Shown in pieces: positions 21,317 through 44,405 of a stretch of 64,000 bases of DNA. Position numbers and translations under genes: made by a program. Numbering within the stretch: position 1 is the stretch's first letter; each line of letters opens with the position of its first letter. The notes beneath the pieces are model-generated. The model worked only from the letters and a program-made list of their open reading frames with translations, did no database searches and was not told where the DNA came from. The DNA comes from Cyanobacteriota bacterium (GTDB taxonomy: Bacteria; Cyanobacteriota; Cyanobacteriia; PCC-6307; Cyanobiaceae). The stretch spans positions 256,001 to 320,000 of the forward strand of contig JBJOMY010000004.1 in assembly GCA_046052125.1 (NCBI GenBank). Reading direction: 5' to 3'.

Positions 21317-21383
21317 GGTGACGAGGCGGTTGCAGAACGAATCTAGGATGGGTAACAGGAAGCGTTGGGTCGTTTCCGGCGCC

Positions 21384-22356: not shown

Positions 22357-22509
22357 TCATCGCTGGCCTGAGCAGGGGCTCTGCGCGGCTTTGGAGCTCC
22401 CGGCTCGGGGATTGTTTAAACGCTTTGGAGCTGGCTGCCGGGCCTGGCCATTGGGCCTTCTGAATATTTTCTTTATGAATCCGGCCTCGCGCTGCTCTTT
22501 GTCGGACAT
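22357..22509 (-). CDS. Possible small hypothetical protein (50 aa)
   Basis: MSDKEQREAGFIKKIFRRP...; in a lower-GC stretch, weak support. Confidence 0.3.
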   Translation of the reverse strand: MSDKEQREAGFIKKIFRRPNGQARQPAPKRLNNPRAGSSKAAQSPCSGQR

Positions 22510-22707
22510 TTGTTTGTTGGTGCTAACCAGGTTCTGGTCAGTGTCGGCCTGTTTTGGCGAACACACCTGGCAGGTCTGCCGGGTGGCTTAGGCGTAAGTC
22601 GTCGATTGCTGTTTGCGGCTCTCTCGGTAGTTGGCAATTCATCACAGCTCCATGCGCATCCGAGCCGAGCTGGTCAAGCTGTGACAAGTGTTGTCTGGCC
22701 CATCCCC

Positions 22708-23205
22708 ATGCTTGAGCTGCTGCCGCCGCTCAACGACCACAACCTGCCTTGGATGGACACGATCCATCCCATCGTCGTTCACTTCGTGATCTCGATGGCG
22801 TTGATCGGCTTCGTCTTTGACGCGATCGGCGTTGTCTGGCGCAAGCCAGCCCTGTTCGAGGTGAGTTTCTGGAACCTGCTCTTCGCCACTGGCGCCATCT
22901 TTGTGGCGATCATCTTTGGTCAGGTTGAGGCTGGCTTGGCCGCCCCCTACGGAGCTGCCCGCAACATCCTCGACATTCACACCACGATCGGCTGGTCGCT
23001 AGCTGGGGTCCTATCCCTCCTCTCCGGTTGGCGTTACGTGCTGAGGAGCCGTGATCCTCAGATCCTGCCGGTCTCCTTCCTAGGGGCCGGGTCCGTGGTT
23101 AGCGCCTTGATCGTGGTTCAGGTGATCTTGGGCGACAAGCTCATTTGGACCTATGGCCTGCACACCGTGAAGGTGGTGGCTGCGATGCGGGAGGGCCTGA
23201 TCTGA
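22708..23205 (+). CDS. DUF2231-like membrane protein 1
   Basis: IHPIVVHFVI motif, 4 TM helices. Confidence 0.8.
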   Translation: MLELLPPLNDHNLPWMDTIHPIVVHFVISMALIGFVFDAIGVVWRKPALFEVSFWNLLFATGAIFVAIIFGQVEAGLAAPYGAARNILDIHTTIGWSLAGVLSLLSGWRYVLRSRDPQILPVSFLGAGSVVSALIVVQVILGDKLIWTYGLHTVKVVAAMREGLI

Positions 23206-23834
23206 TGCTTTTTGCCCTTGCTTACACGCCTGAAAAGGCGCCCATCGACCAGATCGCAGCTGGTCTTGGACCCAATGGCTTGCCCTACAGCCTGCCGATC
23301 CACCCCAACCTGGTGCACCTCACGATCGGCTTATTCGTGATTGCCATTGCCTTTGATGTGGTTGGAGCCCTCTATCCGTTGGAAAAGCGGGTGTTCCGCT
23401 TTTTGGCGCTCCCCATTACCCGCGGCGGTTTTCACGATGTGGGCTGGTACAACCTCCTGGCCTGTTGTCTGGTTTCCTTTTTCACCGTCGCGGCCGGTTT
23501 CTACGAAATGCTCACGGCCGTGCCCCTCCCTGGGGTGAAGAGCACGTTTGGTCTCGGTGGCATGACCACCATGCTTTGGCACGGCGTTGGCGGCGTGTTG
23601 GTGCTGGCGGTGATTGTCGGCATGACGGTTTGGCGTGGCTTCCAGCGCTTCTTTTGGAGGCGTGACATGGGTCGTCAGGTGCAGTGGCTGTATCTCGGTG
23701 TTGGGATCGTGATGTTTGCGGTCATTGGCCTGCACGGAACGCTTGGTGCCCAGCTCGCCGCTGAATTTGGTGTGCACATTGCTGCCGATCAGCTGCTTCA
23801 GGCCGGCGCTGACTTGCATACGGCTCTGCCCTGA
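23205..23834 (+). CDS. DUF2231-like membrane protein 2
   Basis: IHPNLVHLTI motif; TGATG coupling. Confidence 0.8.
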   Translation: MLFALAYTPEKAPIDQIAAGLGPNGLPYSLPIHPNLVHLTIGLFVIAIAFDVVGALYPLEKRVFRFLALPITRGGFHDVGWYNLLACCLVSFFTVAAGFYEMLTAVPLPGVKSTFGLGGMTTMLWHGVGGVLVLAVIVGMTVWRGFQRFFWRRDMGRQVQWLYLGVGIVMFAVIGLHGTLGAQLAAEFGVHIAADQLLQAGADLHTALP

Positions 23835-23846
23835 GGAGATATCCCG

Positions 23847-24785
23847 ATGACGAGTTCCTCATCCCGTTCGATCAATGCGCCTGCGGTGGCAGGTGTCAGC
23901 CTCTGGGTCGGCCTAACTGTGGTGTTCAGCCACTGGATGGGCCAACAGGCTCACCGCTGGCTGCCGGTTCAAGCGTCAACCGCAGCCCCGTTGGTTGACG
24001 ACCTCTTCAGCTTTGAGACGTCCATCGGCACCTTTGTGTTTGTCGGTGTGGTGTCGGTGATGCTGTGGGTGATGTTGTTTAACCGCGCTGAGAAATACGA
24101 CGACAGCGACGCCGTGCCGATCGAGGGCAACACGCGCCTGGAGATCATCTGGACAGCGGTTCCCTTCGTGTTGGTGATGGCGATCGCCTTCTACACCATT
24201 CGAGCGACCAGCGAGCTCGGTGTCTTAGGCCCGATGGAGCACATCCACCCTCGCAACCAACAGGAGGAGCTAGGCGGCTACCCCGGCGATCGTCTGCCTG
24301 CTGAGCAGGTGGAAGTGATTGCACGCCAATGGTCCTGGGAGTTTCGCTATCCCGATGGCAACGTCTCCTCCACGGAGCTCCATCTGGCGGTTGATCAACC
24401 AGTGACGTTCCGTCTGGTTTCAGAGGACGTGTTGCACGGCTTCTACATTCCGGCCTTCCGAATCAAGCAGGATGTGATTCCTGGTCGCGCGATCGATCTC
24501 AACATCACCCCCACACGCGAGGGTGTCTATCGCTTGCGTGACTCCCAGTTCAGCGGCACCTGGTTTGCTGCCAACCAGGCCGATGTGGTGGTGGAGAGCG
24601 ATGAGGTGCATCGTGCCTGGCTTGAGCAGGCTGCGCGAGCTCCCCTGCAGCCAGGGTTGACGCTCGCTGTCTCTGAATACGCCACCCGTCAGGCCCGGCC
24701 AAATCCAGGTTGGGCGACTGTGCCGCCTGCTCCGCCCCCTCAGGTGAATGTGCCTGGTTCCCCCGATCAACCCCACGACGCCTGA
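23847..24785 (+). CDS. ctaC: Heme-copper oxidase subunit II, ARTO type (no CuA ligands)
   Basis: IEGNTRLEIIWT, QWSWEFRY, DVLHGF...KQDVIPG; CuA loop replaced by DSQFSGTWFAAN. Confidence 0.9.
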   Translation: MTSSSSRSINAPAVAGVSLWVGLTVVFSHWMGQQAHRWLPVQASTAAPLVDDLFSFETSIGTFVFVGVVSVMLWVMLFNRAEKYDDSDAVPIEGNTRLEIIWTAVPFVLVMAIAFYTIRATSELGVLGPMEHIHPRNQQEELGGYPGDRLPAEQVEVIARQWSWEFRYPDGNVSSTELHLAVDQPVTFRLVSEDVLHGFYIPAFRIKQDVIPGRAIDLNITPTREGVYRLRDSQFSGTWFAANQADVVVESDEVHRAWLEQAARAPLQPGLTLAVSEYATRQARPNPGWATVPPAPPPQVNVPGSPDQPHDA

Positions 24786-26461
24786 TGACCATCGCCACCT
24801 TCCCACCTGATCCCAAGCCGGAACCCGGCTGGAGCCGTTACTTCGGCTTCTGCACCGATGCCAAGGTGATTGGCATTCAGTACATCGTGACCGCCTTTTT
24901 CTTCTTTTTGATTGGCGGCTTGCTGGCGATGGTGATCCGCGGAGAGCTGATCACGCCGGAATCAGATCTGGTTGACCGTGCTGTGTACAACGGCATCTAC
25001 ACGATGCACGGAACAATCATGTTGTTCCTGTTCATCTTCCCGGTGCTCAATGGGCTCAACAATCTGTTGATTCCCACCATGATCGGTGCGCCCGACATGG
25101 CTTTCCCCCGCCTAAACGCGGTGGCTTTCTGGCTGGTTCCCATCTTCGGCTTCCTGTTGATGGCCAGTTTTCTCGTGCCAGGTGGACCGGCGTATTCAGG
25201 ATGGTGGAGCTATCCGCCCGTGAGTATCCAGAACCCTGTGGGCCATCTCCTCAACGGTCAGGGTTTGTGGATTACGGCCGTCGCTCTATCGGGCGTGTCG
25301 TCGATCATGGGTGCGATCAATTTCGTCACCACGATCCTGCGGATGCGGGCTCCGGGGATGACGATCACCCGCATGCCTGTCTACTGCTGGACTGCTCTTG
25401 CGGCCCAGTCGTTGCAGCTGATCGGCCTGCCAGCTCTCACGGGTGGAGCGATCATGCTCCTGATGGACTTGAGCTTTGGCACCAGCTTCTATCGACCTGA
25501 AGGTGGTGGTGATCCAGTCCTTTATCAGCACTTCTTCTGGTTCTATTCGCATCCGGCGGTCTATGTGATCATCCTGCCGGTCTTTGGAATCTTCTCTGAG
25601 CTTTTTCCGGTCTATTCCCGTAAGCCCCTCTTTGGCTACCTGTATGTGGCTCTGGCCTCGTTCATCATCGTTGGCCTGGGCTTGATCGTGTGGGTTCACC
25701 ACATGTTCCCCAGTGGTGTTGCTCAGTGGATGCGCAATTTGTTCATGGTCACCACCATGCTGATCGCCGTTCCCACTGGCGTGAAGGTGTTTGCCTGGCT
25801 TGGCACGCTCTGGGGAGGCAAGATCCGGCTCACCACGCCGATGTTGTTCAGTCTTGGTGGGCTGTTCAACTTCGTTTTTGCTGGCATCACCGGTGTGATG
25901 CTGGCAACTGTCCCGGTCGACATTCACGTGTCGAACACCTACTTCGTGGTTGGTCACTTCCACTACGTGATCTACGGCGCCGCTGTGATGGGGATCTTCG
26001 CTGCGATTTACCACTGGTTCCCCAAGTTCACTGGTCGGATGCCCTACGAGGGCCTGGGCAAGCTCCACTGCCTGCTCACCTTTGTGGGTGCAAACCTCAA
26101 CTTCCTGCCCATGCACCCTTTGGGGCTGATGGGCATGCCTAGGCGAGTCTCCAGCTACGACCCTGAGTTCACCTTCTGGAATGTGATCGCCAGCCTGGGA
26201 GCGTTCCTGCTTGGGGTTTCGATCATTCCTTTCCTGCTCAATATGGTGAGTTCCTGGATCCGTGGTCCTAAAGCCACCCACAACCCGTGGAATGCCATCG
26301 GTCTTGAATGGCTGTTGCCGTCACCGCCGCCGGAAGACAACTTCGGTGAGGAGGTGCCCACGGTGATTAGTCGCCCCTATGGCTACGGCACCGGTGAGCC
26401 TTTGGTGGAACACCAGGCCGAGATTGAGCGTCGCCTTGAACTGCAGGAGGCTGCGGCATGA
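24785..26461 (+). CDS. ctaD: Heme-copper oxidase subunit I (YS-type A2 motif)
   Basis: TMHGT, WFYSHPAVY, WVHHMF, GHFHYV, GMPRR. Confidence 0.95.
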   Translation: MTIATFPPDPKPEPGWSRYFGFCTDAKVIGIQYIVTAFFFFLIGGLLAMVIRGELITPESDLVDRAVYNGIYTMHGTIMLFLFIFPVLNGLNNLLIPTMIGAPDMAFPRLNAVAFWLVPIFGFLLMASFLVPGGPAYSGWWSYPPVSIQNPVGHLLNGQGLWITAVALSGVSSIMGAINFVTTILRMRAPGMTITRMPVYCWTALAAQSLQLIGLPALTGGAIMLLMDLSFGTSFYRPEGGGDPVLYQHFFWFYSHPAVYVIILPVFGIFSELFPVYSRKPLFGYLYVALASFIIVGLGLIVWVHHMFPSGVAQWMRNLFMVTTMLIAVPTGVKVFAWLGTLWGGKIRLTTPMLFSLGGLFNFVFAGITGVMLATVPVDIHVSNTYFVVGHFHYVIYGAAVMGIFAAIYHWFPKFTGRMPYEGLGKLHCLLTFVGANLNFLPMHPLGLMGMPRRVSSYDPEFTFWNVIASLGAFLLGVSIIPFLLNMVSSWIRGPKATHNPWNAIGLEWLLPSPPPEDNFGEEVPTVISRPYGYGTGEPLVEHQAEIERRLELQEAAA

Positions 26462-27042
26462 CCAGCACCACACTCTCGCAAGAAGGCCAGCATGAGGCCC
26501 ATCTCAAGCACAACCTCACAGGGTTCATCATCTTCCTGTGCTCGGAAAGTGTGATTTTTCTGGCCTTCTTCAGTGGCTATGCCCTGTTGAAGACCAGTGC
26601 TCTTAATTGGTTGCCCGCCGGTGTGGATGGTCTGGAGTGGCGCACCCCGCTGGTGAACACCGTGGTGTTGGTGTCGAGTTCAGGCACCATTGCGCTGGCG
26701 GAGCACTTCAAGGGCCGGGAGAACATGGCCTTGTTCCGCGGCTTCTGGCTGCTCAGCATGGCGATGGGCGCTTACTTCCTCTATGGCCAGGCCGTGGAGT
26801 GGAGCGGGCTGAAGTTCGGCTTCACCTCGGGCACCTTCGGCGGCACCTTCTATCTCCTCACAGGATTCCACGGATTGCACGTTGCCACCGGCATCCTGTT
26901 GATGGGTTTGATGTTGATCAAATCCTTCATCCCTGGCAATTACAGCGGCGGTGAACAGGGTGTTCAGGCCACATCTTTGTTCTGGCACTTCGTGGATGTG
27001 ATTTGGATCATCCTCTTCTTGCTGATTTACGTGTGGCAGTAA
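26458..27042 (+). CDS. ctaE: Heme-copper oxidase subunit III
   Basis: FLCSE, LTGFHGLHV, FWHFVDVIW. Confidence 0.93.
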   Translation: MTSTTLSQEGQHEAHLKHNLTGFIIFLCSESVIFLAFFSGYALLKTSALNWLPAGVDGLEWRTPLVNTVVLVSSSGTIALAEHFKGRENMALFRGFWLLSMAMGAYFLYGQAVEWSGLKFGFTSGTFGGTFYLLTGFHGLHVATGILLMGLMLIKSFIPGNYSGGEQGVQATSLFWHFVDVIWIILFLLIYVWQ

Positions 27043-27055
27043 ACGGAGCTGAATC

Positions 27056-28570
27056 ATGATTATCGACGACAACCATTACAACGTGATCGTGATCGGCAGT
27101 GGTGCCGGTGGAGGAACCCTCGCCGGTCAACTGGCCCGCTCCGGCAAAACCGTTCTGCTGTTGGAGCGTGGTGGCCAACTGCCCCTCGTTGATCAGAACG
27201 TTGCTGATGTGGATCTGTTTCGCAAAGACCGCTATCACCCCGGTGAGCAATGGTTTGGGACAGACGGCGATCCCTTCTCTCCTCAGACGGTGTATGCCCT
27301 AGGCGGCAACACCAAGATCTGGGGCGGTGTGCTCGAGCGGATGCGCGAGCGTGAGTTCAGCGGTCTGCCTCTGCAGGACGGACCTTCTCCCGGTTGGGAA
27401 ATCAGCTATGGCGATCTAGCGCCTTACTACGAGCGGGCCGAAACGCTTTACCGCGTGCATGGCAAGGCCGGTCTGGATCCCACCGAGCCCGCCCGCACCG
27501 CTGGCTATGCCCATGGCCCGAAGCCAATCGAGCCGTTCATGCAGGAACTGCGCAGCAGCCTGCAGCGGCAAGGACTCCATCCCTACGACCTGCCGATCAG
27601 TTGGTCGGACTCCCAGGTGGATCCCAGTGGAGATGCCGAGCTTTTTGGTGTTGAGTTGGCCCGGCAGGACTCCAACATTTGTGTGCGCGAACGTGCTCGA
27701 GTGCGTCGGCTGCATGTGAATCCGAGCGGCACGGAAGTGCGTGGTGTGGAGGCCGAAATCGATGGCAACCAGTGGTTGTTCACCGGTGATGTTGTTGTGC
27801 TGGCAGCCGGCGCGATCAACACCGCTGAACTTCTACTGCGTTCCGCCACTGAACATCACAGCCGCGGTTTGTCGAATGGATCGGATCAGGTGGGCCGCAA
27901 CCTGATGAAGCCGCAGCTCACCTCCGTGATTCAGCTGGCCGCCGAACCCAATTCCGGCCGCTACGGCCGAAGCCTCGGTATCACCGATTTCTACTGGGGC
28001 GATCAGAACGTGAATTTCCCGCTGGGTTCGGTGGCCACAGGTGGTGGCGTGCTGCAGGACGCTCTCTTTGCCGAGTCGCCGCCGGTGTTGTCACTGGTGA
28101 CCAAGCTGATGCCCAGTTTTGGTCTTGAGCAACTGGCCGCACGCTCGGTGGCCTGGTGGGCCATGAGTGCGGTGCGGCCTGACCCCCACAACCGCGTGAC
28201 CCTGCGAGGTAACCACCTGCAGATCCACTACCTGCCGAACAACCGTGAGGCCCACGACCGCTTGGTGTACCGCTGGATCGACACCCTGAAGCAGGTGGAG
28301 AACGATCCCGAGTGCCATGTGGTGAAGCCTGCTCCCACCCACCCGCGGGGAGAAGCACCGCTCACGGTGATGGGCAGCGTTTGCGGGACCTGCCGGATGG
28401 GCTCCAATCCGGCCACATCGGTTGTTGATCTTCAGGGTCGCAGTCACGAGCTCAGCAATCTGTTCATCGCCGATGCGAGCATCTTTCCGAGTTGTCCTGC
28501 CGTTGGTTTTGGGCTCACGGTGATCGCCAATGCCCTTCGCATTGCTGATCGCGTGTTGGAGGTTCTGTGA
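27056..28570 (+). CDS. GMC oxidoreductase homologue (degenerate active site)
   Basis: IGSGAGG FAD motif, VGRNLM, GTCRMG; lacks the Cys cluster and His/Asn pair of its paralogue. Confidence 0.88.
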   Translation: MIIDDNHYNVIVIGSGAGGGTLAGQLARSGKTVLLLERGGQLPLVDQNVADVDLFRKDRYHPGEQWFGTDGDPFSPQTVYALGGNTKIWGGVLERMREREFSGLPLQDGPSPGWEISYGDLAPYYERAETLYRVHGKAGLDPTEPARTAGYAHGPKPIEPFMQELRSSLQRQGLHPYDLPISWSDSQVDPSGDAELFGVELARQDSNICVRERARVRRLHVNPSGTEVRGVEAEIDGNQWLFTGDVVVLAAGAINTAELLLRSATEHHSRGLSNGSDQVGRNLMKPQLTSVIQLAAEPNSGRYGRSLGITDFYWGDQNVNFPLGSVATGGGVLQDALFAESPPVLSLVTKLMPSFGLEQLAARSVAWWAMSAVRPDPHNRVTLRGNHLQIHYLPNNREAHDRLVYRWIDTLKQVENDPECHVVKPAPTHPRGEAPLTVMGSVCGTCRMGSNPATSVVDLQGRSHELSNLFIADASIFPSCPAVGFGLTVIANALRIADRVLEVL

Positions 28571-31257: not shown

Positions 31258-31314
31258 CAATTGGGCGACAACCGCCTTAATTGTTTCTAGCTTGCGGGTA
31301 CTGACGGTATCCCT

Positions 31315-32913: not shown

Positions 32914-32940
32914 CGAGGTGATCAACGAGCTGGGGGAGGC

Positions 32941-33441
32941 TCACACCCCCAGCCACACCCGCAGGAGATCGTCGATCAGGAGAGTGTCGAGCGAGAGCAG
33001 ACCGCCGCCACAGAAGATCAGCACCGCGCACATCACCACATACATCGCCGCTTTTTCCCAGCTGGGCGGTTCCCCCACTCCCATTGGGCCGGCGTAGTCG
33101 CCATCCGGGATCAGATAGGGATCGGCAGCGATAAAGGGAAAGCCGCTGCGAATCTCCAACACCATGGCGTAGGCCATCGAAACGAGAATCGCGAAGGACG
33201 CCAGCGGTGTGAGCAGACCCACGATCAGAGCGATGCCACCGGCCCACATCGAGCCTGCCGAGAGAAAACACAGCCACGCCGGCGTGTTCAGCATCTGCGC
33301 CCAGGTCTGCAGGTTGCGCAGCTTGGGCCAACCATGGCGAATAAAGCAGATCCCCATGAACAATCGCAGGATGAACAGGGCTGTTTGTGCCAGGGGGGAT
33401 GGTGCCGCAGGCACCAACAACTCCACCACCGTGATGTCCAT
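32941..33441 (-). CDS. DoxX family membrane protein
   Basis: LRLFMG..F..HGWPKL, GGIALIVGLLTPLAS, GGGLLSLD. Confidence 0.85.
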   Translation of the reverse strand: MDITVVELLVPAAPSPLAQTALFILRLFMGICFIRHGWPKLRNLQTWAQMLNTPAWLCFLSAGSMWAGGIALIVGLLTPLASFAILVSMAYAMVLEIRSGFPFIAADPYLIPDGDYAGPMGVGEPPSWEKAAMYVVMCAVLIFCGGGLLSLDTLLIDDLLRVWLGV

Positions 33442-33503
33442 CAGGATTGTTCGCGATGATGGCAACCTAGATGGGTTGCTTCATCCCTGCATCCCAGCTG
33501 TGA

Positions 33504-34478
33504 TCAGCTGCAGACCAATTGCAACTGGTGGCCATCGGGGTCGCGGATCTGTAGGGCCTGCCCAAAGCCCAGGGCCTTGGCTTGGGTTGCCTCAAGCGTC
33601 ACGATGCCTGGGCTGACCAGGCTTCCGCCGTAGGTCTCCACTTCCTTAGCAATGCCCGCCAAATCGCTCACATTCAGTCGAATTTGCCAGTGGGCGAGGT
33701 CGGCGGCGTTTTGATCCGTGGCCATGGGCCGCCCGATGTTCGGGTGTTGGTAGTTGAGGCATTCGATGCCGGCGCCCTCGGGGCAGCGGTGCGAGGTGAT
33801 GCGCACGCTGGTGTCGCTGAGGCCATCGAGCTGATCCTGTTCGATGCCACTGTTCACACCATCGCCCCCGAGCCTTAACCCCAGCAGTTCTTCGTAGAAG
33901 CGGCAGCTCCTTGGCGTATCGGCGTTGGCGATGGCGCTGTGGTCGATGCCCAGCACAGGCGTGCTCTGCTGCCGGTGCCAGCGAGGCTCGCCTTTATCGG
34001 CGGGGAACTGCAGTAGTTCCAGGCAATGCCCATCGGGATCGTGAAATTTGAACGCCACGATGCCCGCTGCCGCTGTGTTCCAGCTCGGCAACGTCTGCGG
34101 CGCAGAGGAGATGGTCTGCAGCTCGGCGTTGTTGATCAACCCACTGATCGGTGCTGCAGCTGCAGCCATGTCATTCACCACGATGCAGATGTGCTGAAAC
34201 CACAGATCGCAGCTGCGCGAATCCGGCGGAATGGTGCGCCCGGGTGGGAACCCGGCGCCGAGGCGCTGCACCTCCGTGAGCTCCAGGGTCTCCTCCCCCA
34301 GCCGCAGGCGCACCAGCTTGAGTTGGCTCCCTGGCAGGCCGATCAGCTGGCCGTAACTCCCCCCATCCACCAGCAGGGTTTCAAGCCGCTGGCAGCCCAG
34401 GTGCTGCTCATAGAAGTTGGCGATGGCATCGCTATCGCTGCAGGTGAATCCGATGCTGCGGATGTGGGGGCTGTGCAT
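33504..34478 (-). CDS. Tandem VOC/glyoxalase-family protein
   Basis: FQHICIVV, FHDPDGHCLEL, IDHSAI, RDPDGHQLQL. Confidence 0.85.
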   Translation of the reverse strand: MHSPHIRSIGFTCSDSDAIANFYEQHLGCQRLETLLVDGGSYGQLIGLPGSQLKLVRLRLGEETLELTEVQRLGAGFPPGRTIPPDSRSCDLWFQHICIVVNDMAAAAAPISGLINNAELQTISSAPQTLPSWNTAAAGIVAFKFHDPDGHCLELLQFPADKGEPRWHRQQSTPVLGIDHSAIANADTPRSCRFYEELLGLRLGGDGVNSGIEQDQLDGLSDTSVRITSHRCPEGAGIECLNYQHPNIGRPMATDQNAADLAHWQIRLNVSDLAGIAKEVETYGGSLVSPGIVTLEATQAKALGFGQALQIRDPDGHQLQLVCS

Positions 34479-34511
34479 GGTGTTCGTTGAGGCTTTGGTG
34501 CTGGACAAGGC

Positions 34512-34934
34512 CTAGAGGCTGGATAAGGCCGCCGCCGCTGCCGTGGCGATCGCCGCATCGAGGTCAGGTGTCATCCCTGAGACGCCAACAGCCCCGATAC
34601 AACTGCCGTTCACCAGCAGAGGCAATCCGCCACCCATGGCCACGGCGCCTTCTTTAAACACACCCGCCAGTTGCAGCAGGGCTGGGCGTGAGCTGTTGAT
34701 CGCGGCTTCTTGATCGGCGGTGGGCTTTCCGTTGAGCGCGGCCATGCGCGCTTTGGCCATGGCCACTGCTGCACTGGAGGGACTGGCGCCATCCAGCCGC
34801 ACCAATAGCAAGGGGTGGCCTCCGCCATCACAGATGGCAAGGCTCACCGTGGCTTGATGTTGGGCCGCTATCGCCTCGGCCGCCGCGGCGATCCGGCGGC
34901 AATCGTCGAGCTCAAGGGCTTGAATCGATCGCAT
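34512..34934 (-). CDS. GlcG/HbpS-like heme-binding protein
   Basis: AICDGGGH, AMAKARMA, GGGLPL...IGAVGVSG...D. Confidence 0.85.
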   Translation of the reverse strand: MRSIQALELDDCRRIAAAAEAIAAQHQATVSLAICDGGGHPLLLVRLDGASPSSAAVAMAKARMAALNGKPTADQEAAINSSRPALLQLAGVFKEGAVAMGGGLPLLVNGSCIGAVGVSGMTPDLDAAIATAAAAALSSL

Positions 34935-34941
34935 CGTTCGC

Positions 34942-35199
34942 TCAGCGCCACACAATTTTCATGAGCCAGAGATGGCCTTCCAGTTCCACGCCGGCGGCTG
35001 CTGCCTCCAGGTCGCTCTCGCTGAGCCGCAGGGTGGCTTCGGCCTGGTGTTTCACGAGGTCGACCCCGCTGAATTGAAAGCCCAGTTCCGCCCCAAGGGC
35101 TGCAATGGCATTGAGGTTGGGGCAGGCGCTGAAACGCTGTAGCAGGGCTGGGTCGCCCTTCACCTGCTTGAGGAAGGTTTCGAGCTGGGGATTGGCCAT
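34942..35199 (-). CDS. Nif11-like leader peptide family protein (85 aa)
   Basis: MANPQLETFLKQVKGDPALLQRF...AELGFQFS...LSESDLEAAAAG then VELEGHLWLMKIVWR; ATG at 35199. Confidence 0.8.
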   Translation of the reverse strand: MANPQLETFLKQVKGDPALLQRFSACPNLNAIAALGAELGFQFSGVDLVKHQAEATLRLSESDLEAAAAGVELEGHLWLMKIVWR

Positions 35200-35252
35200 G
35201 GTTGTTGCGAGCGGGAGGAGCAGGTTGAGATTCAGTGCGGATTCGGGGGGCG

Positions 35253-36173
35253 TCAGTGCGGCCAGGTGGCGCCACGGGTGGCTGTGAACAGGCTGTACAG
35301 GGCTGTGGAGGCACACAGGAACAGGCGGCTGCCGTAGCGGTCGCCGAAGCACACGTTGGACACCCGCTTCGGCACCAGCACCTTGCCGATCAGGACCCCG
35401 TCGGGTGCGATCACATGCACCCCATCGGCAGCTCCGCACCAGAGGTTGCCGTGTTCATCCACACGGAAGCCATCGGCCCAGCCTGGGCTGATCTTGTGGA
35501 AGATCTCTCCGCCGCTGAGGCTGCGCCCATCGGCGTTCACCTGGAAGCGTCGGATGTACTGCCTCGGCTCTCTGGCACCGGGGGCCCCGGATTCGGCCAC
35601 ATACAGCAGTTGTTCATCCGGGGAGAAACCCAGTCCATTGGGGCCATCGAAGTCCGTGGCGACGGCCTGGGCCTGACCGCTCTCGGGATCGAACCTGTAG
35701 AGCGCAGGCGCTTGCTCCGAACTCTGCTGACCTCCCTCGTAGTCGTTCATCAGGCCGTAGAGAGGATCGCTGAACCAGATCGATCCATCGCTCTTCACCA
35801 CCACGTCGTTGGGGGCGTTCAGGCGACGGCCGTTCGCTTCAGACACCAGCGTGGTGGTGCTGCCGTTGTGCTCCAGGCGGGTAAGGCAGCGGCTGCGGTG
35901 GTGGCATTGGATCAGTCGACCCTCGCGATCGCGGGTTTGCCCGTTGGCGAACTCCGATGGCTCCTGAAAGGTGCTGACACCGTGCTGTTCACTCCAGCGC
36001 AGCGTGCGGTTGTTGGGGATGTCGTTGAACAGCAGGCAGCGGTGATCGCCGTACCACACGGGACCCTCCAGCCAGCGGAAGCCCTCCGCCAGCAGTTCGA
36101 GCTCGGCGTTGAACAGCACGAGCTGCTCGAAGCGCGGGTCGTAGCTCTCGGTGCAATCCGAGGGTTTGTTCAT
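35253..36173 (-). CDS. SMP-30/gluconolactonase family protein
   Basis: WLEGPVW, LNAPNDV, PNGLGFSPDE, ADGFRVD. Confidence 0.9.
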   Translation of the reverse strand: MNKPSDCTESYDPRFEQLVLFNAELELLAEGFRWLEGPVWYGDHRCLLFNDIPNNRTLRWSEQHGVSTFQEPSEFANGQTRDREGRLIQCHHRSRCLTRLEHNGSTTTLVSEANGRRLNAPNDVVVKSDGSIWFSDPLYGLMNDYEGGQQSSEQAPALYRFDPESGQAQAVATDFDGPNGLGFSPDEQLLYVAESGAPGAREPRQYIRRFQVNADGRSLSGGEIFHKISPGWADGFRVDEHGNLWCGAADGVHVIAPDGVLIGKVLVPKRVSNVCFGDRYGSRLFLCASTALYSLFTATRGATWPH

Positions 36174-36631
36174 TGGAAGAAGCCCGGAGGTGCGCAGCGC
36201 CAGGCGTCGTCGTTGCGCTGGATGATCAGTTGCACGCAGGGTTCATCGCCCACCTGGGCGGAGAGGTGCCCTTTGTGCCCCTCAGGGGAGGCGATGCAGC
36301 CCTGATCGCCACCGAAGGAATACTCACCGGCGCGCATGATGGCGATCTGGCCATCCATGCTCTGCACCGACCAGGCGCCCCGGAGCACATAGATCCACTT
36401 TGGGATGTGGTTTTCGTGCCAATCAGCCGTCCACCCCACCGGCAGGTAGGTGACAAAGGCATTGCCCTGATCAAACAGTGGCCTCGAAAACTGGGGTGAA
36501 TCGCCTGGCCCGAGCTGTCCGAGCTGAAACTGGCTGATCGTGCACTGCTGCTGGCGGCTGATGCCGTCTTCACCGGTCCAGAGGTGCCAGTAGGTCTCCG
36601 GGAGAGGAGCCAGGCTGAAGGGGTCGCTCAT
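36170..36631 (-). CDS. Cupin domain protein
   Basis: DWHENHIPKWIYVLRG...GHLS; ATGA coupling to lactonase. Confidence 0.75.
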   Translation of the reverse strand: MSDPFSLAPLPETYWHLWTGEDGISRQQQCTISQFQLGQLGPGDSPQFSRPLFDQGNAFVTYLPVGWTADWHENHIPKWIYVLRGAWSVQSMDGQIAIMRAGEYSFGGDQGCIASPEGHKGHLSAQVGDEPCVQLIIQRNDDAWRCAPPGFFQ

Positions 36632-36642
36632 CGCTGGTGTGT

Positions 36643-37047
36643 TCAGTCTTTGATGGCGATGGCTGAGATCTCCAGCTGGATGCCCAGCACCAGAGCCGAC
36701 ACCTCCACCACAGCGCGGGAGGGATAGGCCTGCGGATCAGGGAAATACTCCTGCCACACGGCGTCGAAGGTGTCGAGTTTGTCGATGTCGGTGAGGTACA
36801 CCGTGGCGCTCACCACGTGCTCGAAACCGAAACCGGCTTCCTCCAGCACCGCCTGCATGTTGCACATCACCTGACGCGATTCCAGGGTGATGTCGCCATC
36901 GCCCACCTTCAGGTTGGTGGCCGGGTCGACGGGGAGCTGTCCGGTGATGAACAGCATGTTTCCCCGCTGAAACCCCTGGCTGTAGGAGGCCACAGGCGTG
37001 GGAAAACGGTCGCTGTGAATGGCTCTGCGGATTACTGCTTCAGACAA
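36643..37047 (-). CDS. RidA/YjgF family protein
   Basis: YSQG, ITGQLP, YPSRA, LEISAIA. Confidence 0.9.
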   Translation of the reverse strand: MSEAVIRRAIHSDRFPTPVASYSQGFQRGNMLFITGQLPVDPATNLKVGDGDITLESRQVMCNMQAVLEEAGFGFEHVVSATVYLTDIDKLDTFDAVWQEYFPDPQAYPSRAVVEVSALVLGIQLEISAIAIKD

Positions 37048-37213
37048 CGTCGTGCAGTCAAGAACGGTGACTTCACCGTAGGGATGGCGCTGGAATTGTC
37101 ATCGCACTGTCATGGGCGTGACGGCTCATCCGTTTGGTGTTGCAGTGGCCGGCACGATCACGTACTTCGCCCTAGCGTCCCAGCATTCAGCCCTTTGCGG
37201 CAGCTGCTTCGCC

Positions 37214-38020
37214 ATGACCACCACCAACCCCTACGCCCTCGAAACCCTCGCCAACTTCCTGAAAGGCAAGGTGATCATCGTGACCGGCGGCAACAGCGGG
37301 ATCGGTAAATCGATCGTGGAGGAGGTGGCCCGTCTCGGTGCCCGGGTGGTGATCGACTACCGCTCCCACCCGGAGGCTACCGCCGCCATCGAGCAGGAAA
37401 TCGGCGAGCTCGGTGGCACTTGCGTGGGTGTGCAGGCGGATGTCTCCAATCTCGACGATCTGCAACGGCTGGTGCAGGAGGCGGTGAACCGCTACGGCCG
37501 GCTCGACGTGATTGTGAACAACGCCGGCATCGAAACCCGCACCTCCATCCTCGACACCACGCCCGAGGATTTCGACAAGGTGCTGAATGTGAACCTGCGC
37601 GGTGTGTTCTTCGCCACCCAGTACGCCGCCAAGCAAATGATTGCCCAGGGCACCGGCGGGCGAATCATCAATATCTCGTCCGTGCACGAAGACTGGCCCA
37701 TGCCCAACAACACGCCTTACTGCGTGGCCAAGGGCGGCGTGCGCATGCTCACCCGCACCGCGGGTGTGGAACTGGCGTCGAAGGGCGTGTCGATCGTGAA
37801 CGTGGGCCCCGGTGCCGTGGCCACGCCGATCAACGACTCCACGATGAACAACCCCGAGCTGCTGGCCAAGCTGAACTCGGCGATTCCGATGGGGCGCATG
37901 GCTCAGCCGGAAGAGATCGCCAAGGTGGTGGCCTTCCTGGCCAGCGATGCCGCCAGCTACATCACGGCCACCAGCATCTTTGCCGACGGCGGCATCATGC
38001 AGAGCAGCCCTGGTCTGTGA
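37214..38020 (+). CDS. SDR, glucose 1-dehydrogenase-like
   Basis: TGGNSGIG, NNAGIE, SSVHE.WP, YCVAKGG, PGAVATPIN, as in Bacillus-type GDH. Confidence 0.85.
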   Translation: MTTTNPYALETLANFLKGKVIIVTGGNSGIGKSIVEEVARLGARVVIDYRSHPEATAAIEQEIGELGGTCVGVQADVSNLDDLQRLVQEAVNRYGRLDVIVNNAGIETRTSILDTTPEDFDKVLNVNLRGVFFATQYAAKQMIAQGTGGRIINISSVHEDWPMPNNTPYCVAKGGVRMLTRTAGVELASKGVSIVNVGPGAVATPINDSTMNNPELLAKLNSAIPMGRMAQPEEIAKVVAFLASDAASYITATSIFADGGIMQSSPGL

Positions 38021-38730
38021 GGCTGACCCGCGAACAACTCAGGCAGATCCGTGGCCGCCATCTCGGCTATCGGATCTGCCTTGTCTATGAGCTCACGATG
38101 GTGTTGTTGCTGCCGGTTGCGCAGCGGTTCCCATGGTTGCTCTCGCTGCTGTTGATCCTGGAGGCCGCGGTCTTCATGATCTTCGTGACTCGCTTCAGTT
38201 CCCTTAAAGCCACACGCCCGCTGATGTTGACCCTCGGTTCCATGGCGATCGCCATGGAGCTGATCTGGCATGCGGCGATGGCGTTCAATCCTGTCTTGGC
38301 ACGGCACCTCACGATGCCCCACGTGGTGGTGTGGGTGATGTTCCTCGTGCTCACGGTGCTTCGGAAGGTGAAGTCGTTGATTCGTGAGCCTTACGTCACC
38401 ACGTCGGTGGTGCTTGGCGCGGCTGCGGGCTACCTCACGGTGGGCATCGCTGGGGGTGTGATGCTCACGGCCCTATGGGTGCTTCAGCCCTCGGCATTCG
38501 TGGCTTCGGCGCTGCCACCCGTCAGCTCTGCAGGCGCGATCCCCGTCTTCGCTGGCCCTTCGCTGATGGCCGCCTCCTTTGGCTTGCTCACCACCGTAGG
38601 CACGTCTGTGCTCACCCCAAGCAATATCAACGCTCAGGTGATCGCCAACGTGATCACCATCTCGGGTCAGCTATACGTGGCCATCTTGATCGCGCTGATT
38701 CTTGGGCGCGCTCAGAAACGGCTGTCATGA
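38017..38730 (+). CDS. Potassium-channel-family membrane protein with altered filter
   Basis: SFGLLTTVGTSVLTP...GQLYVAILIA pore region; GTG at 38017 overlaps upstream stop. Confidence 0.7.
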   Translation: MRLTREQLRQIRGRHLGYRICLVYELTMVLLLPVAQRFPWLLSLLLILEAAVFMIFVTRFSSLKATRPLMLTLGSMAIAMELIWHAAMAFNPVLARHLTMPHVVVWVMFLVLTVLRKVKSLIREPYVTTSVVLGAAAGYLTVGIAGGVMLTALWVLQPSAFVASALPPVSSAGAIPVFAGPSLMAASFGLLTTVGTSVLTPSNINAQVIANVITISGQLYVAILIALILGRAQKRLS

Positions 38731-40040
38731 CGTCACTGAAGGATCTGATCCAGCGGCTGGTGCAGCTGGCGGTGCTGGGTTTGTTTGTGGGGCTGTTGTG
38801 CTGGCCCTTCAACCTGGTGGATCGCTGGGGTGATCAGCTGCTCAGTCTGTTGCCGGCCTTCAGTGGTTCGGCTTGGCGGCCTCTCACCCTGCTCTTGGCC
38901 TGTTCACCACTGGTGGTGTTTCCGCTGCTGATGGTGTTGAAGGGCGGTGCGTTCCGCCGCGGCAAAGGGTCGGGCATCCCCCAGACGATGACCAGCATTG
39001 AGGAGCCGGAGCAGGCGGCTGCGCTGTTGGGCCTGTTGCCCACCCTGCAGCGGCTGGTGTTGTGGAGCCTGGCCAGCCTCAGCCTGATGCCGATGGGCCG
39101 GGAAGGTCCGGTGGTTCAGATCGGTGCGTCGGCCGCCTTCTGGTTGCGGCGTCGCTTTCCGCGTTGGCTGGGTGATCTGCGCCACAGCGATCTCATGGCA
39201 GTGGCCGGGGGCGCTGGTCTTGCCGGTGGGTTCAACACACCCCTGATGGGTGTGGTGTTTGTGGCCGAGGAGTTTCTGGGCACCTTTTCAATGCGCCTGA
39301 TCTGGCCGGCTTTGGTGATCAGCGCCATGGCGGCGGCCGTGAGCAGTGCCGTCGGCGAACCGGAGTTTGCGCTGGGCATGGTGGGCGTTGCTCCTGCGGA
39401 GCTGATCCAGTTGGCCTGGGCGATCCCCATCGGCGTATTGGCCGGTGGGCTCGGAGCTGTTTTTGCGCGCATGTTGCTGGCCGCAACGCGCCTGTTCGGG
39501 GGGGTGGTGCAGCGTCAGCCACTGCGGCTGGGCCTGCTGCTGGGGGGCGCACTCAGCTTGTTCCTGCTACTGAGCGGCGGTGCCTCCGGCTGCGATGGCG
39601 AGCTGCTGATGCGGCACATGATCGAAGGCGGATCGCCCACCAATCAGCTGCTGCCGGGGGTGGCGGGTGACCTGTTCACCTTGCTGCTCCGGGTGATCGG
39701 CCCGGTGCTCGCCCTTGGCGCAGGTATCCCGGGCGGATTGATTGATCCCTCGTTTGCCTTCGGCGCCGTGCTCGGTCAGAGCTTGGGCGATGCCGGCATG
39801 GTGCCCCAGATGGGGCTGGCCTTCGGGATGGTGGCTGGCCTGGCTGGCGCCACCCAGTTACCGGTGATGGCGGTGCTGTTTGCCGTTCGCATGGCCGGCG
39901 ACCAACAGCTCCTGCCTGGGTTGCTGTTGGCCTCCGTGTTGGGGGCCTATGTGAGCCGTTTGCTGGTGGATCAGCCCGTGTATCACGCCCTCAAGGGCAT
40001 CGCCGATGAGGCGACGCCCCCCGCGCCAAGCGGCTCATGA
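38727..40040 (+). CDS. CLC chloride channel / Cl-/H+ antiporter
   Basis: GSGIP, GREGP, FNTPL.G..F..EE, VYHAL. Confidence 0.9.
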   Translation: MTSLKDLIQRLVQLAVLGLFVGLLCWPFNLVDRWGDQLLSLLPAFSGSAWRPLTLLLACSPLVVFPLLMVLKGGAFRRGKGSGIPQTMTSIEEPEQAAALLGLLPTLQRLVLWSLASLSLMPMGREGPVVQIGASAAFWLRRRFPRWLGDLRHSDLMAVAGGAGLAGGFNTPLMGVVFVAEEFLGTFSMRLIWPALVISAMAAAVSSAVGEPEFALGMVGVAPAELIQLAWAIPIGVLAGGLGAVFARMLLAATRLFGGVVQRQPLRLGLLLGGALSLFLLLSGGASGCDGELLMRHMIEGGSPTNQLLPGVAGDLFTLLLRVIGPVLALGAGIPGGLIDPSFAFGAVLGQSLGDAGMVPQMGLAFGMVAGLAGATQLPVMAVLFAVRMAGDQQLLPGLLLASVLGAYVSRLLVDQPVYHALKGIADEATPPAPSGS

Positions 40041-41357
40041 AGGCGCTTCAGTGATCACCAGTGCCGACCGCTCGCGGGTGAAGATCACCCAGAGCCATTT
40101 GGTGAGCACGGTGAGGCGGTTTTCGGCGTCAGGCATGAAGGCCAGGTGAGCCAGGCCCCAGAGCAACCAGCCGAAGGGGCCGGTGAACTTCAAGCCGCGC
40201 AGGTCAGCCACGGCGAAGAGAGGCCCCACCACCGCCATCGTGCCGAAATCAGTGAAGGCAAAGGGCTGGTGGCTCTGGTTCTGCGTTTTGGCCAGAATGT
40301 CTTTGGCCACCCACACCCCCATCTGCACAGCTGGGCCCGCCATGCCGGGTAGGGGTTTGCCGTCTTTGGTGTGGCTGTAGCTGCAGAGATCACCCACCAC
40401 GCGGATTTCCGGGTGGCCGGGGATCGAGAAATCGGCTTCCACCGGAATGCGGCCGCCGCGATCAATCGCGCATCCGGTGTGATCAGCCAGCAGCTTGCCC
40501 AGGGGTGAAGCGGCCACACCGGCTGTCCAGCAGATCGTTTTGGCCTCCAAGGTCACCTCGGACTCTTGGGTGGTGAGCACCAGCTTTCCGGCTTCGATCG
40601 ATTTCACGCGCCCGCCCAGCAACAGCTCCACACCGCTCCGCCTGAGGTGGTCGCCAGCCGCTTTGGAGAGCTCAGGATCCATGGCGCGCAGCACCCGATC
40701 ACCCGGATCCACCAGGGTGACCTTGCACAGGTTGGGATCGATCTGTTTGAAATCGCGCTCCAGGGTGTGGCGCATCAGGTCGTTGAGGGAGGCCGCCAGC
40801 TCACAGCCGGTGGGGCCACCTCCCACTACAACCACCGATTGCAAGAGGCGCCGCTGTTCTGGATCGGGCGTTTGCTCGGCTTCTTCGAGGGCGCCGAGCA
40901 CACGCTTGCGAATGCCGTAGGCATCCTCCAACGTCTTCATCGGGGTCGCGAACTCAGCCCATTCGTCGTGCCCGAAGAAGGTGCTCGCTGCACCAGCGGC
41001 AACGATCAGGTGGTCGTAGCGCAGGCGCCGTTCGTTGAACACCACCTCCTTGGCGGTGGGATCAATCTCCTCCACTTCCCCCAGCAGGATCTGGATGTTC
41101 GGTGCTTTGCCGAGCATGATCCGTAGCGGCGAGGCCACATCGGTCTGCGACACCAGCCCCGAAGCCACCTGATACAGCATCGGCTGGAACAGGTTGAAAT
41201 TGCGCTTGTCAATCAGCGTCACCCGTACGGTCTTGCCGGCGAGGGTCTGGGCTGCTTTGAGCCCTGCAAATCCAGCGCCCACGATCACCACGTGGGGGGC
41301 ATCCCGTAGCAATTCAGAGGGTGGGGTGAGTTCGAGGAAGAACCGCTCCGGAGCCAT
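40035..41357 (-). CDS. Type-II NAD(P)H:quinone oxidoreductase (NDH-2)
   Basis: GAGFAG, FQPMLYQV, GGGPTGCE, WTAGV, A.PA.QMG. Confidence 0.9.
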   Translation of the reverse strand: MAPERFFLELTPPSELLRDAPHVVIVGAGFAGLKAAQTLAGKTVRVTLIDKRNFNLFQPMLYQVASGLVSQTDVASPLRIMLGKAPNIQILLGEVEEIDPTAKEVVFNERRLRYDHLIVAAGAASTFFGHDEWAEFATPMKTLEDAYGIRKRVLGALEEAEQTPDPEQRRLLQSVVVVGGGPTGCELAASLNDLMRHTLERDFKQIDPNLCKVTLVDPGDRVLRAMDPELSKAAGDHLRRSGVELLLGGRVKSIEAGKLVLTTQESEVTLEAKTICWTAGVAASPLGKLLADHTGCAIDRGGRIPVEADFSIPGHPEIRVVGDLCSYSHTKDGKPLPGMAGPAVQMGVWVAKDILAKTQNQSHQPFAFTDFGTMAVVGPLFAVADLRGLKFTGPFGWLLWGLAHLAFMPDAENRLTVLTKWLWVIFTRERSALVITEAPS

Positions 41358-41402
41358 CAGTGCCAACTGCGTTGGCTTCAAGCTAACGAGACCTGTTCTG
41401 AA

Positions 41403-41780: not shown

Positions 41781-41835
41781 GGGGACCGCGTATCAGTGCC
41801 CCATTCAAGCGAGTGCTGGTCGCCGTTGATCTGGA

Positions 41836-44365: not shown

Positions 44366-44405
44366 GGGCAAAAAGCCTACGGGGCGGGGCCTTTGCACCG
44401 TTTGG

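Follow-up and report, generated by a model that had tools for sequence, protein, structure and literature searches.

An alternative respiratory terminal oxidase operon joined end to end with putative glucoside-splitting and sugar-oxidising genes in a freshwater-type picocyanobacterium

A 64,000-nucleotide stretch from a Cyanobacteriota genome (GenBank assembly GCA_046052125.1, contig JBJOMY010000004.1, positions 256,001 to 320,000; hereafter the window) carries alternative respiratory terminal oxidase (ARTO) genes next to genes for predicted sugar enzymes. A preliminary description, made from the sequence alone, had presented these genes as one self-contained module of sugar oxidation and respiration. 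We consider the block best explained as two separately conserved units that lie side by side and are partly co-transcribed in this lineage, a reading to which we give a probability of about one half. Unit A, a type-1 ARTO operon of the kind already known, is present here in its complete and widespread form: an NDH-2-type NAD(P)H:quinone oxidoreductase gene neighbours DUF2231a-DUF2231b-ctaC-ctaD-ctaE-GMC1. Unit B comprises genes for a probable short-chain dehydrogenase/reductase (SDR) glucose dehydrogenase, a GH63-like protein and a second GMC flavoprotein (GMC2), with variable DoxX, VOC, lactonase, cupin and MIP genes, and is met with in 14 cyanobacterial families. The gene set of unit A was known before; new here is an ARTO operon that runs directly into genes for putative glucoside-splitting and sugar-oxidising enzymes. 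The genes, their motifs, their conservation and their occurrence in libraries of environmental RNA are what was observed.

An open reading frame (ORF) listing, combined with Pfam and NCBIfam scans of the window proteins, recovered every gene named in the preliminary description, together with six that it had omitted (DoxX, a two-domain VOC protein, HbpS-like, Nif11, cupin and RidA), all of which lie on the minus strand, like the lactonase gene, between GMC2 and the SDR gene. Eight plus-strand genes form an operon, DUF2231a-DUF2231b-ctaC-ctaD-ctaE-GMC1-GH63-like-GMC2, with intergenic gaps of at most 57 bases. The DUF2231b ATG (23205) overlaps the DUF2231a stop, ctaC begins 12 bases after DUF2231b, ctaD and ctaE each overlap the preceding gene, 13 bases separate ctaE from GMC1, GMC1 and the GH63-like gene overlap by 4 bases, and the largest gap, 57 bases, precedes GMC2. 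The approximately 19 kb, with genes on both strands, thus represent this operon plus at least four more transcription units and not one unit alone.

The operon is well conserved among close relatives. A scan with the GH63-like protein against one genome per species gave 219 confirmed stretches, and the best 80 of these were used for the close-relative counts; flanks were read for 129 loci in all (89 GH63-like loci, 20 picked DUF2231 pairs and the rest close relatives), and 400 genomes were sampled from a larger set. The full eight-gene order is kept in 54 of the 57 related loci with at least 5.95 kb upstream and at least 1.75 kb downstream, which indicates an arrangement beyond chance. Three loci depart from it: L030, where GMC2 is missing at the expected place, L078, which is rearranged or partial, and L083, which reads ...SGL- SDR+ GH63+ GMC2+ NDH2- DUF2231a+ ... 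ctaE+ GMC1+, showing that SDR-GH63-GMC2 can be excised from the ARTO operon as one piece. The genes farther downstream are variable: the 54 loci with at least 9.5 kb of downstream sequence include DoxX in 25, VOC in 16, SDR in 16, SGL in 13, Nif11 in 13, cupin, CLC and NDH-2 in 12 each, HbpS-like in 11 and RidA in 6. CLC, Nif11, HbpS-like and RidA are variable passengers, and CLC, present in so few of these loci, is not conserved with the block in which it had been placed.

The NDH-2-type gene, also assigned to the module, travels with ARTO rather than with the sugar genes. It lies directly upstream of and divergent from DUF2231a in 21 related loci (summed from the printed patterns), and among the 50 loci that span at least 22 kb, 19 show the order (VOC) SDR+ NDH2- DUF2231a+..., with NDH-2 divergent from DUF2231a; anywhere in those 50, SDR is found in 36 and NDH-2 in 33 (counted from patterns). 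In genome G354, GH63-GMC2-DoxX-VOC-SDR-SGL-cupin lies about 10 kb away from the DUF2231 pair. Within the window's own family (f1), gene order is thus shuffled while the neighbourhood is retained.

Environmental RNA libraries also contain the locus. Contigs from four metatranscriptomic libraries (three studies) fall on all or nearly all of the 30 bins of 22201-42200, and near-identical contig pieces bridge DUF2231a/b-ctaC-ctaD (23151-24871, 9 differences), GMC1/GH63 (28312-28826) and GH63/GMC2 (30988-31694). Contig depth is almost absent over the CLC bins (38209-39542) in all four libraries, and this unevenness argues weakly against plain DNA carry-over. An adapter-like tail terminates one RNA-library contig at 22702, which hints weakly that a 5' end lies immediately before the ATG of DUF2231a.

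The ARTO operon and its additional proteins

The genome carries two COX1 loci, ctaD-II and that of the canonical oxidase, and subunits II, I and III of the additional oxidase are encoded together (COX2, COX1 and COX3 domains), as in ARTO. The CuA motif H...C-x-E-x-C-x3-H-x2-M is absent from the window CtaC-II, which reads RLRDSQFSGTWFAANQ at the expected position, and from all 23 ARTO orthologues; a conserved RLRDSQFSGTWFA stands in place of the ligands in the window protein and in each of the 23. The orthologues share (R/T/Q/M)D(S/A)x(F/Y/L)SG(T/A)xF(A/S), most commonly as RLRDSQFSGTYFA, while the canonical CtaC of the same genome retains its CuA ligands (H...CAELCGPYHGGM). With the CuA ligands missing from CtaC, the earlier identification of the oxidase as a CuA-less ARTO is upheld. 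The window operon resembles the type-1 ARTO operons of Synechocystis (CtaCII-DII-EII) and Anabaena (qox/cox3) in encoding a second haem-copper oxidase with a CuA-less subunit II behind two conserved genes that precede ctaC, but differs in continuing through GMC1, the GH63-like gene and GMC2. For Anabaena, a review sets out the operon alr2729-alr2730-coxB3-coxA3-coxC3 and leaves undecided whether such oxidases have further subunits; from the same position in loci of one sampled family (f7) we infer that alr2729 and alr2730 encode DUF2231 proteins. A published account gives ARTO only a partial chain on the cytoplasmic membrane.

DUF2231 was matched in 151 of 401 sampled genomes of the phylum, and 20 kb was read around each of 20 DUF2231 pairs from at least 10 families, hand-picked among the matches listed and not random. 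The genes ctaC, ctaD and ctaE follow the pair in 17 of these 20 loci, and a GMC1 orthologue lies directly after ctaE in 12, at 46-52% identity (68-70% in two marine-type genomes). NDH-2, at 42-46% identity, adjoins three of the picked loci (L157, L159, L169), and none of the 20 contains GH63, GMC2, VOC, SGL, cupin or DoxX in the 20 kb read. Among five genomes whose picked locus is without GMC1, G268 carries the gene at another ARTO locus, and in three of them a search at E 1e-30 found no match. Three picked loci (L160, L166, L172) hold a second, more divergent DUF2231 pair (48-51% identity) with an NDH-2-like neighbour (28-31%) and an incomplete or divergent oxidase set.

Unit A can be recognised in published data. 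One adjacent-gene cluster in supplement file 5 of Dore et al. (ISME J, 2023) comprises two DUF2231 proteins along with ctaC2, ctaE2 and a 'choline dehydrogenase-like flavoprotein', so unit A was already known as a gene set. The corresponding clusters, Pro-eCAG_016 and Syn-eCAG_015, have nearly one phyletic pattern for their members; the DUF2231 proteins, ctaC2 and ctaE2 appear in eCAG columns 16 and 15, and the flavoprotein only in Prochlorococcus eCAG number 16. In the 256-genome table of that study we counted 110 genomes with both ctaE2 and the flavoprotein, none with ctaE2 alone, 3 with the flavoprotein alone and 143 with neither, so that GMC1 co-occurs almost perfectly with ctaE2. The accessible portion of the main text reports ARTO in 85% of marine Synechococcus reference genomes, discusses only ctaC2-D2-E2 and proposes no role for the DUF2231 and flavoprotein members (Dore et al., 2023). 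GMC, choline dehydrogenase and DUF2231 annotations occur in three rows only of the supplements, in which no search for glycosidases was made. The preliminary description knew of no account of the block as a unit; this needs amending for ARTO with its two DUF2231 proteins and flavoprotein, and stands for the sugar part, since our literature searches found, among the papers listed, no description of the sugar unit, of ARTO with GMC or of a cyanobacterial GH63-like protein. Searches on DUF2231 returned nothing relevant.

Both GMC proteins of the operon would naturally be taken for sugar oxidases, and a closer analysis corrects this for GMC1. The two are 38% identical, carry GxGxxG and GMC_oxred_N/C domains, and most resemble, both of them, the catalytic subunits of FAD-glucose dehydrogenase from Burkholderia (BcGDH) and of fructose dehydrogenase from Gluconobacter (FDH). 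In GMC1 and 14 of 14 orthologues, however, the Fe-S cysteine loop is deleted while the FAD motif is intact. The catalytic His position is S in the window protein and N, H or Y in orthologues, and the catalytic Asn position is S, P, T, G or M across the family, so GMC1 lacks the His/Asn (or His/His) pair of GMC oxidoreductases. Because GMC1 is found without any GH63 and has no such pair, we conclude that it is not a sugar enzyme of the module, contrary to the preliminary description, but a partner of the ARTO operon. Its alignment (15 sequences, 70% mean column identity) indicates a protein under selection that is yet unlikely to be an ordinary sugar dehydrogenase. The best NCBIfam match of GMC1, far below cut-off, is MftG, a mycobacterial GMC-fold flavoprotein that, according to the available part of the published work, feeds the respiratory chain and does not oxidise sugar. 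Mycofactocin genes are absent here, and the comparison is one of analogy, not of membership.

The DUF2231 proteins are similarly constrained. Five residues are invariant in 26 orthologues of each (H20, H25, E74, H91 and H152 in DUF2231a; H33, H38, E101, H126 and H191 in DUF2231b). An AlphaFold (AF2) model of DUF2231b shows four long helices with a predicted local distance difference test score (pLDDT) of 78.9, and Arg and Lys abound in its loops 56-72 and 152-160, a feature that by the positive-inside rule would place the His/Glu set on the outer face, on the side of the CuA-less CtaC domain. Foldseek found no match of the model in the PDB at E <=0.001 (best E 0.28), a wide VIA-align search returned generic four-helix bundles only (designed proteins at a best Z of 14, cytochrome b561 at Z 10.3), and a protein atlas search returned DUF2231 clusters only; with these generic helical bundles, no specific fold relation is claimed. 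Complex prediction for DUF2231a, DUF2231b and GMC1 scored 0.00 and 0.01 for the partner GMC1 against a mark of 0.32, which counts neither for nor against a complex.

Four invariant His and one Glu per DUF2231 protein, probably facing outward, could bind metal, and the ARTO set (CtaCDE, two DUF2231 proteins and GMC1) might chiefly be a metal reductase or redox valve that faces outward and serves, for instance, reductive iron uptake, with the sugar unit and NDH-2 supplying reductant. Dore et al. (2023) cite work on a Synechocystis ctaDII/ctaEII mutant with impaired Fe(III) reduction and uptake, and themselves find ARTO enriched in low-Fe ocean populations; ferric-reductase-like genes also lie beside GH63-like genes in 6 loci from 6 families. 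Metal binding by DUF2231 is, however, only conjectured, the DUF2231b model matches nothing but generic bundles, and the window's operon contains no iron transporter, the nearby ATP-binding cassette (ABC) permease (42824-44398) having no specific family match. We regard this explanation as very unlikely.

Enzymes and neighbourhoods of the sugar unit

The SDR protein is probably an NAD(P)+ glucose 1-dehydrogenase, as the preliminary description had proposed. Its best PDB matches are 1GCO, the Bacillus megaterium glucose 1-dehydrogenase (E 4e-64), 1RWB and 1GEE (to 1.4e-63), with the next family not named as a glucose dehydrogenase at 4e-49, so it stands nearer to characterised glucose dehydrogenases than to FabG-type SDRs. 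Among NCBIfam models it exceeds the cut-off of PRK07231 (228.7 bits, cut-off 215) and falls under that of PRK08936 (253 bits, cut-off 420). A preprint on a cyanobacterial glucose dehydrogenase/gluconate kinase bypass used 1GCO as bait and, in its accessible portion, reports that the Spirulina and Lyngbya homologues are active NAD(P)+ glucose dehydrogenases and that Synechocystis has no such glucose dehydrogenase route (10.64898/2026.04.01.715859). The SGL protein likewise bears out its earlier naming as a gluconolactonase: its closest PDB entries are 3e5z (E 2e-55) and 3dr2 (E 3e-49), one a putative and one a characterised gluconolactonase, and we assign it by these matches to the SMP-30/gluconolactonase family of lactonases. 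The VOC protein had no PDB match at E 0.001.

The GH63-like protein scores 32.2 bits against PF03200 (cut-off 22.4) and 68.7 bits against PF22422 (cut-off 27), has no NCBIfam model match, and aligns by profile with yeast glucosidase I and E. coli YgjK (E 6e-10 against 4j5t); its C-terminal block with the invariant E857 aligns to glucosidase I residues 765-807. With yeast glucosidase I, YgjK, Thermus MgH and mycobacterial GgH it has in common the Pfam GH63 C-terminal and MGH1-like domains, but its length of 896 aa is double that of GgH (446 aa), and on this ground close kinship with GgH was rejected. According to the GgH paper, two marine cyanobacteria, Synechococcus PCC 7002 and Prochlorococcus marinus, have no homologues of GgH. 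Identity with GghA (Slr1670) was also rejected, as GghA belongs to the GHL5 family and no GHL5 Pfam match was found here. No signal peptide was seen on reading by eye, and the protein would be a cytoplasmic glucosidase. Elsewhere its neighbours include MIP, MscS, CLC, glycogen debranching enzyme, isoamylase and invertase; MIP, the debranching enzyme, isoamylase and invertase are a loose hint that the substrate is a compatible-solute glucoside or an oligosaccharide derived from glycogen.

Unlike GMC1, GMC2 retains the His/Asn pair and has four cysteines in the loop that aligns with the cluster-binding loop of membrane-bound FAD-dehydrogenase complexes. Its closest PDB entries are Burkholderia FAD-GDH alpha and the Gluconobacter FDH large subunit (E 4e-30). 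GH(Q) and VNP occupy the catalytic pair positions in 11 of 11 sequences (GMC2 and 10 orthologues), aligned to His476/Asn519 of BcGDH, and the four-cysteine loop is kept in GMC2 and 9 of the 10 orthologues, the remaining one having Phe at the third Cys. The accessible part of the literature describes, for the BcGDH class, a 3Fe-4S cluster on Cys212, Cys218 and Cys222 and the catalytic pair His476/Asn519 (PMC6719666). Despite this likeness to BcGDH gamma-alpha-beta and FDH, the loop is spaced differently (C-x2-C-x2-C-x4-C in GMC2, CC-x4-C-x3-C in BcGDH/FDH), and GMC2 has neither a cytochrome c neighbour nor an N-terminal signal; it is probably cytoplasmic because that signal is absent. No cytochrome c domain was found in any ORF of 22.5-41.8 kb, where a Tat hitch-hiker small subunit was not searched for.

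The GH63-like protein was matched in 76 of the 401 sampled genomes and 56 of 155 genera, and neighbourhoods of up to 20 kb were read around 89 matches (75 genomes, 55 genera, 22 families), with neighbours counted within 8 kb. An SDR orthologue is near the GH63-like gene in 33 of these 89 loci (14 families) and GMC2 in 19 (9 families), followed by VOC in 14 (5 families), MIP in 11 (6 families), a ferric-reductase-like gene in 6 (6 families), cupin and DoxX in 6 each (2 families each), and SGL and glycogen debranching enzyme in 5 each (3 families each). Conversely, of 48 GMC2-type genes counted in this sample of genomes, 21 have a GH63-like gene no more than 10 kb away, and for another the distance is 14.4 kb. 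The ferric-reductase-like neighbour (L126, L138, L192, L195, L201, L222) is a NOX-type membrane flavocytochrome and a possible second membrane electron outlet for the sugar unit. A second GH63-like paralogue on the same contig, outside the window (G000:C4:3528-6167, L142), is 45% identical and falls in a separate 16-row clade; neither it nor that clade has any of the module's neighbours.

The accessory genes admit another interpretation, in which unit B with DoxX, VOC, cupin, RidA and HbpS-like forms a detoxification set for reactive quinones or carbonyls and not an energy-yielding sugar pathway. The mhqNOP genes of Bacillus subtilis, which act in resistance to hydroquinone, combine a VOC dioxygenase and a DoxX protein, and RidA and VOC are typical families of damage-control enzymes; DoxX and VOC are adjacent here and in L179. 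The best-conserved core is, however, SDR-GH63-GMC2 and not DoxX-VOC, sugar enzymes are good matches for both SDR and SGL, and of 54 related loci only 6 contain RidA and only 11 HbpS-like. We therefore hold a detoxification role to be improbable.

Adjacency and possible coupling of the two units

Telling loci come from a distant family (f3), in which the GH63 protein is only about 50% identical to that of the window. Two of them (L115, L219) read ARTO(-) SDR GH63 cupin VOC, two others (L116, L178) read VOC NDH2-like SDR GH63 DUF2231a DUF2231b ctaC ctaD ctaE ... GMC2, and another (L179) reads GH63 cupin VOC DoxX SGL GMC2. Cupin orthologues adjoin the GH63-like gene in both f1 and f3. A FastTree phylogeny built from 78 GH63-like proteins puts the ARTO-linked clade of f1 together with that of f3 in a single 34-row group of unresolved inner order, and the label 'ARTO' needs three changes on the tree. 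The sugar gene set thus repeatedly adjoins ARTO and NDH-2 in two distant lineages, an association that, as such, partly supports coupling. DUF2231 occurs in 62 of 76 GH63-positive and 89 of 325 GH63-negative genomes, a difference confounded by lineage and genome size and not used as a test.

The two units might instead be unrelated neighbours, a GH63/GDH/GMC2 stress or carbohydrate set having been inserted behind ARTO in a tRNA-flanked flexible region and being read through by accident. Unit A occurs without unit B in all 20 picked ARTO loci outside the GH63 set, unit B without ARTO in 79 of the 89 GH63-like loci, and L083 has SDR-GH63-GMC2 upstream of the ARTO operon, not inside it. The MIP, MscS, CLC, glycogen debranching enzyme and invertase genes near unit B look like an osmotic or carbohydrate-stress set. 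A tRNA-Leu(TAA) gene (21384-21467, +), the sole Rfam match in the window, precedes the operon start by 1.2 kb, and over 22001-34000, the ARTO/GH63 part, GC falls to 0.58-0.61 from 0.64-0.67 on either side; the Prochlorococcus ARTO cluster carries a genomic island label in the table of Dore et al. (2023). Against an accidental arrangement stand the adjacency itself, which arose or persisted in two families despite the divergence of their GH63 proteins and outlasts several rearrangements within f1, and the published observation, from the accessible part of the source, that GMC2-type enzymes normally pass electrons to the membrane chain (PMC6719666). We consider unrelated neighbours rather unlikely, though this is a serious alternative.

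Several observations nonetheless weigh against our preferred reading of two conserved, partly co-transcribed units. The units are separable and usually separate: ARTO is near the GH63-like gene in 10 of 89 loci and in 2 of 22 families (f1 and f3), 50 of the 89 loci have none of the listed neighbours, and five f1 genomes contain a DUF2231 pair but no GH63-like gene. Neighbourhood conservation, which the preliminary description had offered as a check, holds for the eight-gene order in close relatives, and for the pairing of the units in two families only. The compared genomes are kin, so the counts overstate independence, and the tRNA-Leu gene and low GC give the locus an island-like placement from which co-location could stem. 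Contigs in RNA libraries may hold DNA and can neither prove a single transcript nor rank genes. GMC1, its canonical pair lost, may be no dehydrogenase at all. MIP, a frequent GH63-like neighbour elsewhere, was absent on searching the genome, and gluconokinase was not found in this 99.96% complete genome (TIGR01313 best 20 bits against a cut-off of 114; TIGR01314 no match), which weighs against a simple glucose-to-6-phosphogluconate bypass, so the module may not be self-contained.

Under the two-unit reading, every substrate, the transfer to quinone and whatever coupling A and B may have, physical or regulatory, are inferred. The GH63-like glucosidase would free glucose from an alpha-glucoside, either a compatible solute or a glycogen-derived oligosaccharide; the Bacillus-type SDR glucose 1-dehydrogenase would convert it to gluconolactone and NAD(P)H; and the SMP-30 lactonase would open the lactone. 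GMC2 would oxidise a sugar or sugar acid and deliver the electrons to membrane quinone, NDH-2 would re-oxidise NAD(P)H; the quinol would be consumed by ARTO at the cytoplasmic membrane. The route from glycoside through sugar and aldonic acid to quinone and ARTO envisaged in the preliminary description has partial support from gene association, and its substrates, electron path and co-regulation are putative. It resembles the glucose dehydrogenase/gluconate kinase bypass in that the best match of the window SDR is the bait 1GCO, and differs in that no gluconokinase was found in the window genome; the available portion of the preprint makes no mention of a GH63, GMC or ARTO context (10.64898/2026.04.01.715859).

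We also considered a stronger proposal, in which the DUF2231 pair and GMC1 are true ARTO subunits with an electron entry of their own, wired in Cyanobium-type and some filamentous cyanobacteria to a glucoside-to-gluconate chain through glucose dehydrogenase and GMC2. The four-His/one-Glu sites of the DUF2231 proteins would then lie on the outer face beside the CuA-less CtaC domain, and GMC1 would be a remodelled protein that has lost its sugar-oxidising residues. ARTO would not simply be a plastoquinol oxidase, and a plasma-membrane 'sugar-to-oxygen' branch would skip the thylakoid pool. We find this proposal quite unlikely.

For work on ARTO, a poorly understood oxidase that occurs in many cyanobacteria, the locus and its comparison name three conserved extra oxidase proteins (the two DUF2231 proteins and GMC1) and an NDH-2 as candidates. 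In some lineages a glucose-releasing and glucose-oxidising gene set may feed ARTO, a testable lead to the electron source of this oxidase. If true, this would bear on the dark and stress survival of abundant freshwater picocyanobacteria, on the disputed non-phosphorylative glucose routes of cyanobacteria and on the engineering of electron export.

Layout and surroundings of the locus

The genome comprises 2.64 Mb in 10 contigs, and the GC of the window is about 0.64. By the GH63-like gene, the nearest named records are Vulcanococcus, Cyanobium and freshwater Synechococcus contigs (74-85% protein identity), and the DNA runs containing the locus bear mostly freshwater metagenome labels; the source organism is a freshwater-type picocyanobacterium. 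Six records of metagenome-assembled genomes with the operon (L010, L031, L035, L044, L049 and L070; 74-85% identity) bear unrelated names (Asaia, Klebsiella, Bordetella, Tabrizicola, Bradyrhizobium) and are probably mislabelled bins. Coordinates of the genes are collected in Table 1.

Table 1. Genes of the block, with window coordinates, strand and family matches.
Feature	Position	Strand	Family match or remark
DUF2231a	22708..23205	+	PF09990, 111.6 bits; ATG at 22708; operon gene 1; four-helix membrane protein
DUF2231b	23205..23834	+	PF09990, 123.7 bits; membrane protein, paralogue of DUF2231a
ctaC-II, ARTO subunit II	23847..24785	+	COX2 and COX2_TM; no CuA site
ctaD-II, haem-copper oxidase subunit I	24710..26461	+	COX1, 509 bits; start codon uncertain
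ctaE-II, subunit III	26458..27042	+	COX3, 105.8 bits
GMC1, ARTO-linked GMC-fold flavoprotein	27056..28570	+	Pfam GMC_oxred_N/C
GH63-like (MGH1-like), 896 aa	28567..31257	+	PF22422, PF03200
GMC2, predicted flavoprotein dehydrogenase	31315..32913	+	GMC_oxred_N/C
DoxX-family membrane protein	32941..33465	-	PF07681
Two-domain VOC (glyoxalase/dioxygenase superfamily)	33504..34508	-	PF00903
HbpS-like	34512..34955	-	PF03928
Nif11-type leader ORF	34942..35439	-	PF07862, TIGR03798; true start probably near 35199
SMP-30/gluconolactonase-family lactonase (SGL)	35253..36173	-	PF08450, 151 bits
Cupin-like	36170..36631	-	Weak Cupin_2 match, under cut-off
RidA	36643..37047	-	PF01042, TIGR00004
SDR, probable NAD(P)+ glucose 1-dehydrogenase	37112..38020	+	Start perhaps ~45 codons later
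CLC-family transporter	38475..40040	+	PF00654
NDH-2-type NAD(P)H:quinone oxidoreductase	40035..41381	-	Pyr_redox_2, 170.9 bits; NDH2_C 21.7 bits, below the cut-off of 27.7

A promoter scan (0 promoter-like sites, 4.4 expected) and a terminator scan (25 terminator-like sites, 16.3 +/- 3.9 expected) were uninformative; the only noteworthy site of the latter is a weak hairpin at 31263-31277, between the GH63-like gene and GMC2. The Nif11-type leader ORF, of the kind found with ribosomally synthesised and post-translationally modified peptides (RiPPs), is wedged between the HbpS-like and lactonase genes, with no maturation enzyme evident nearby. Upstream of the operon lie an NADPH-dependent FMN-reductase-family gene (21486-21995, -) and ndhL (21062-21436, -). 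Downstream, at 42824-49163 and outside the block, the two-domain ABC permease is accompanied by a Crp-family regulator, TauE and rhodanese/metallo-beta-lactamase genes, which look sulfur-related.

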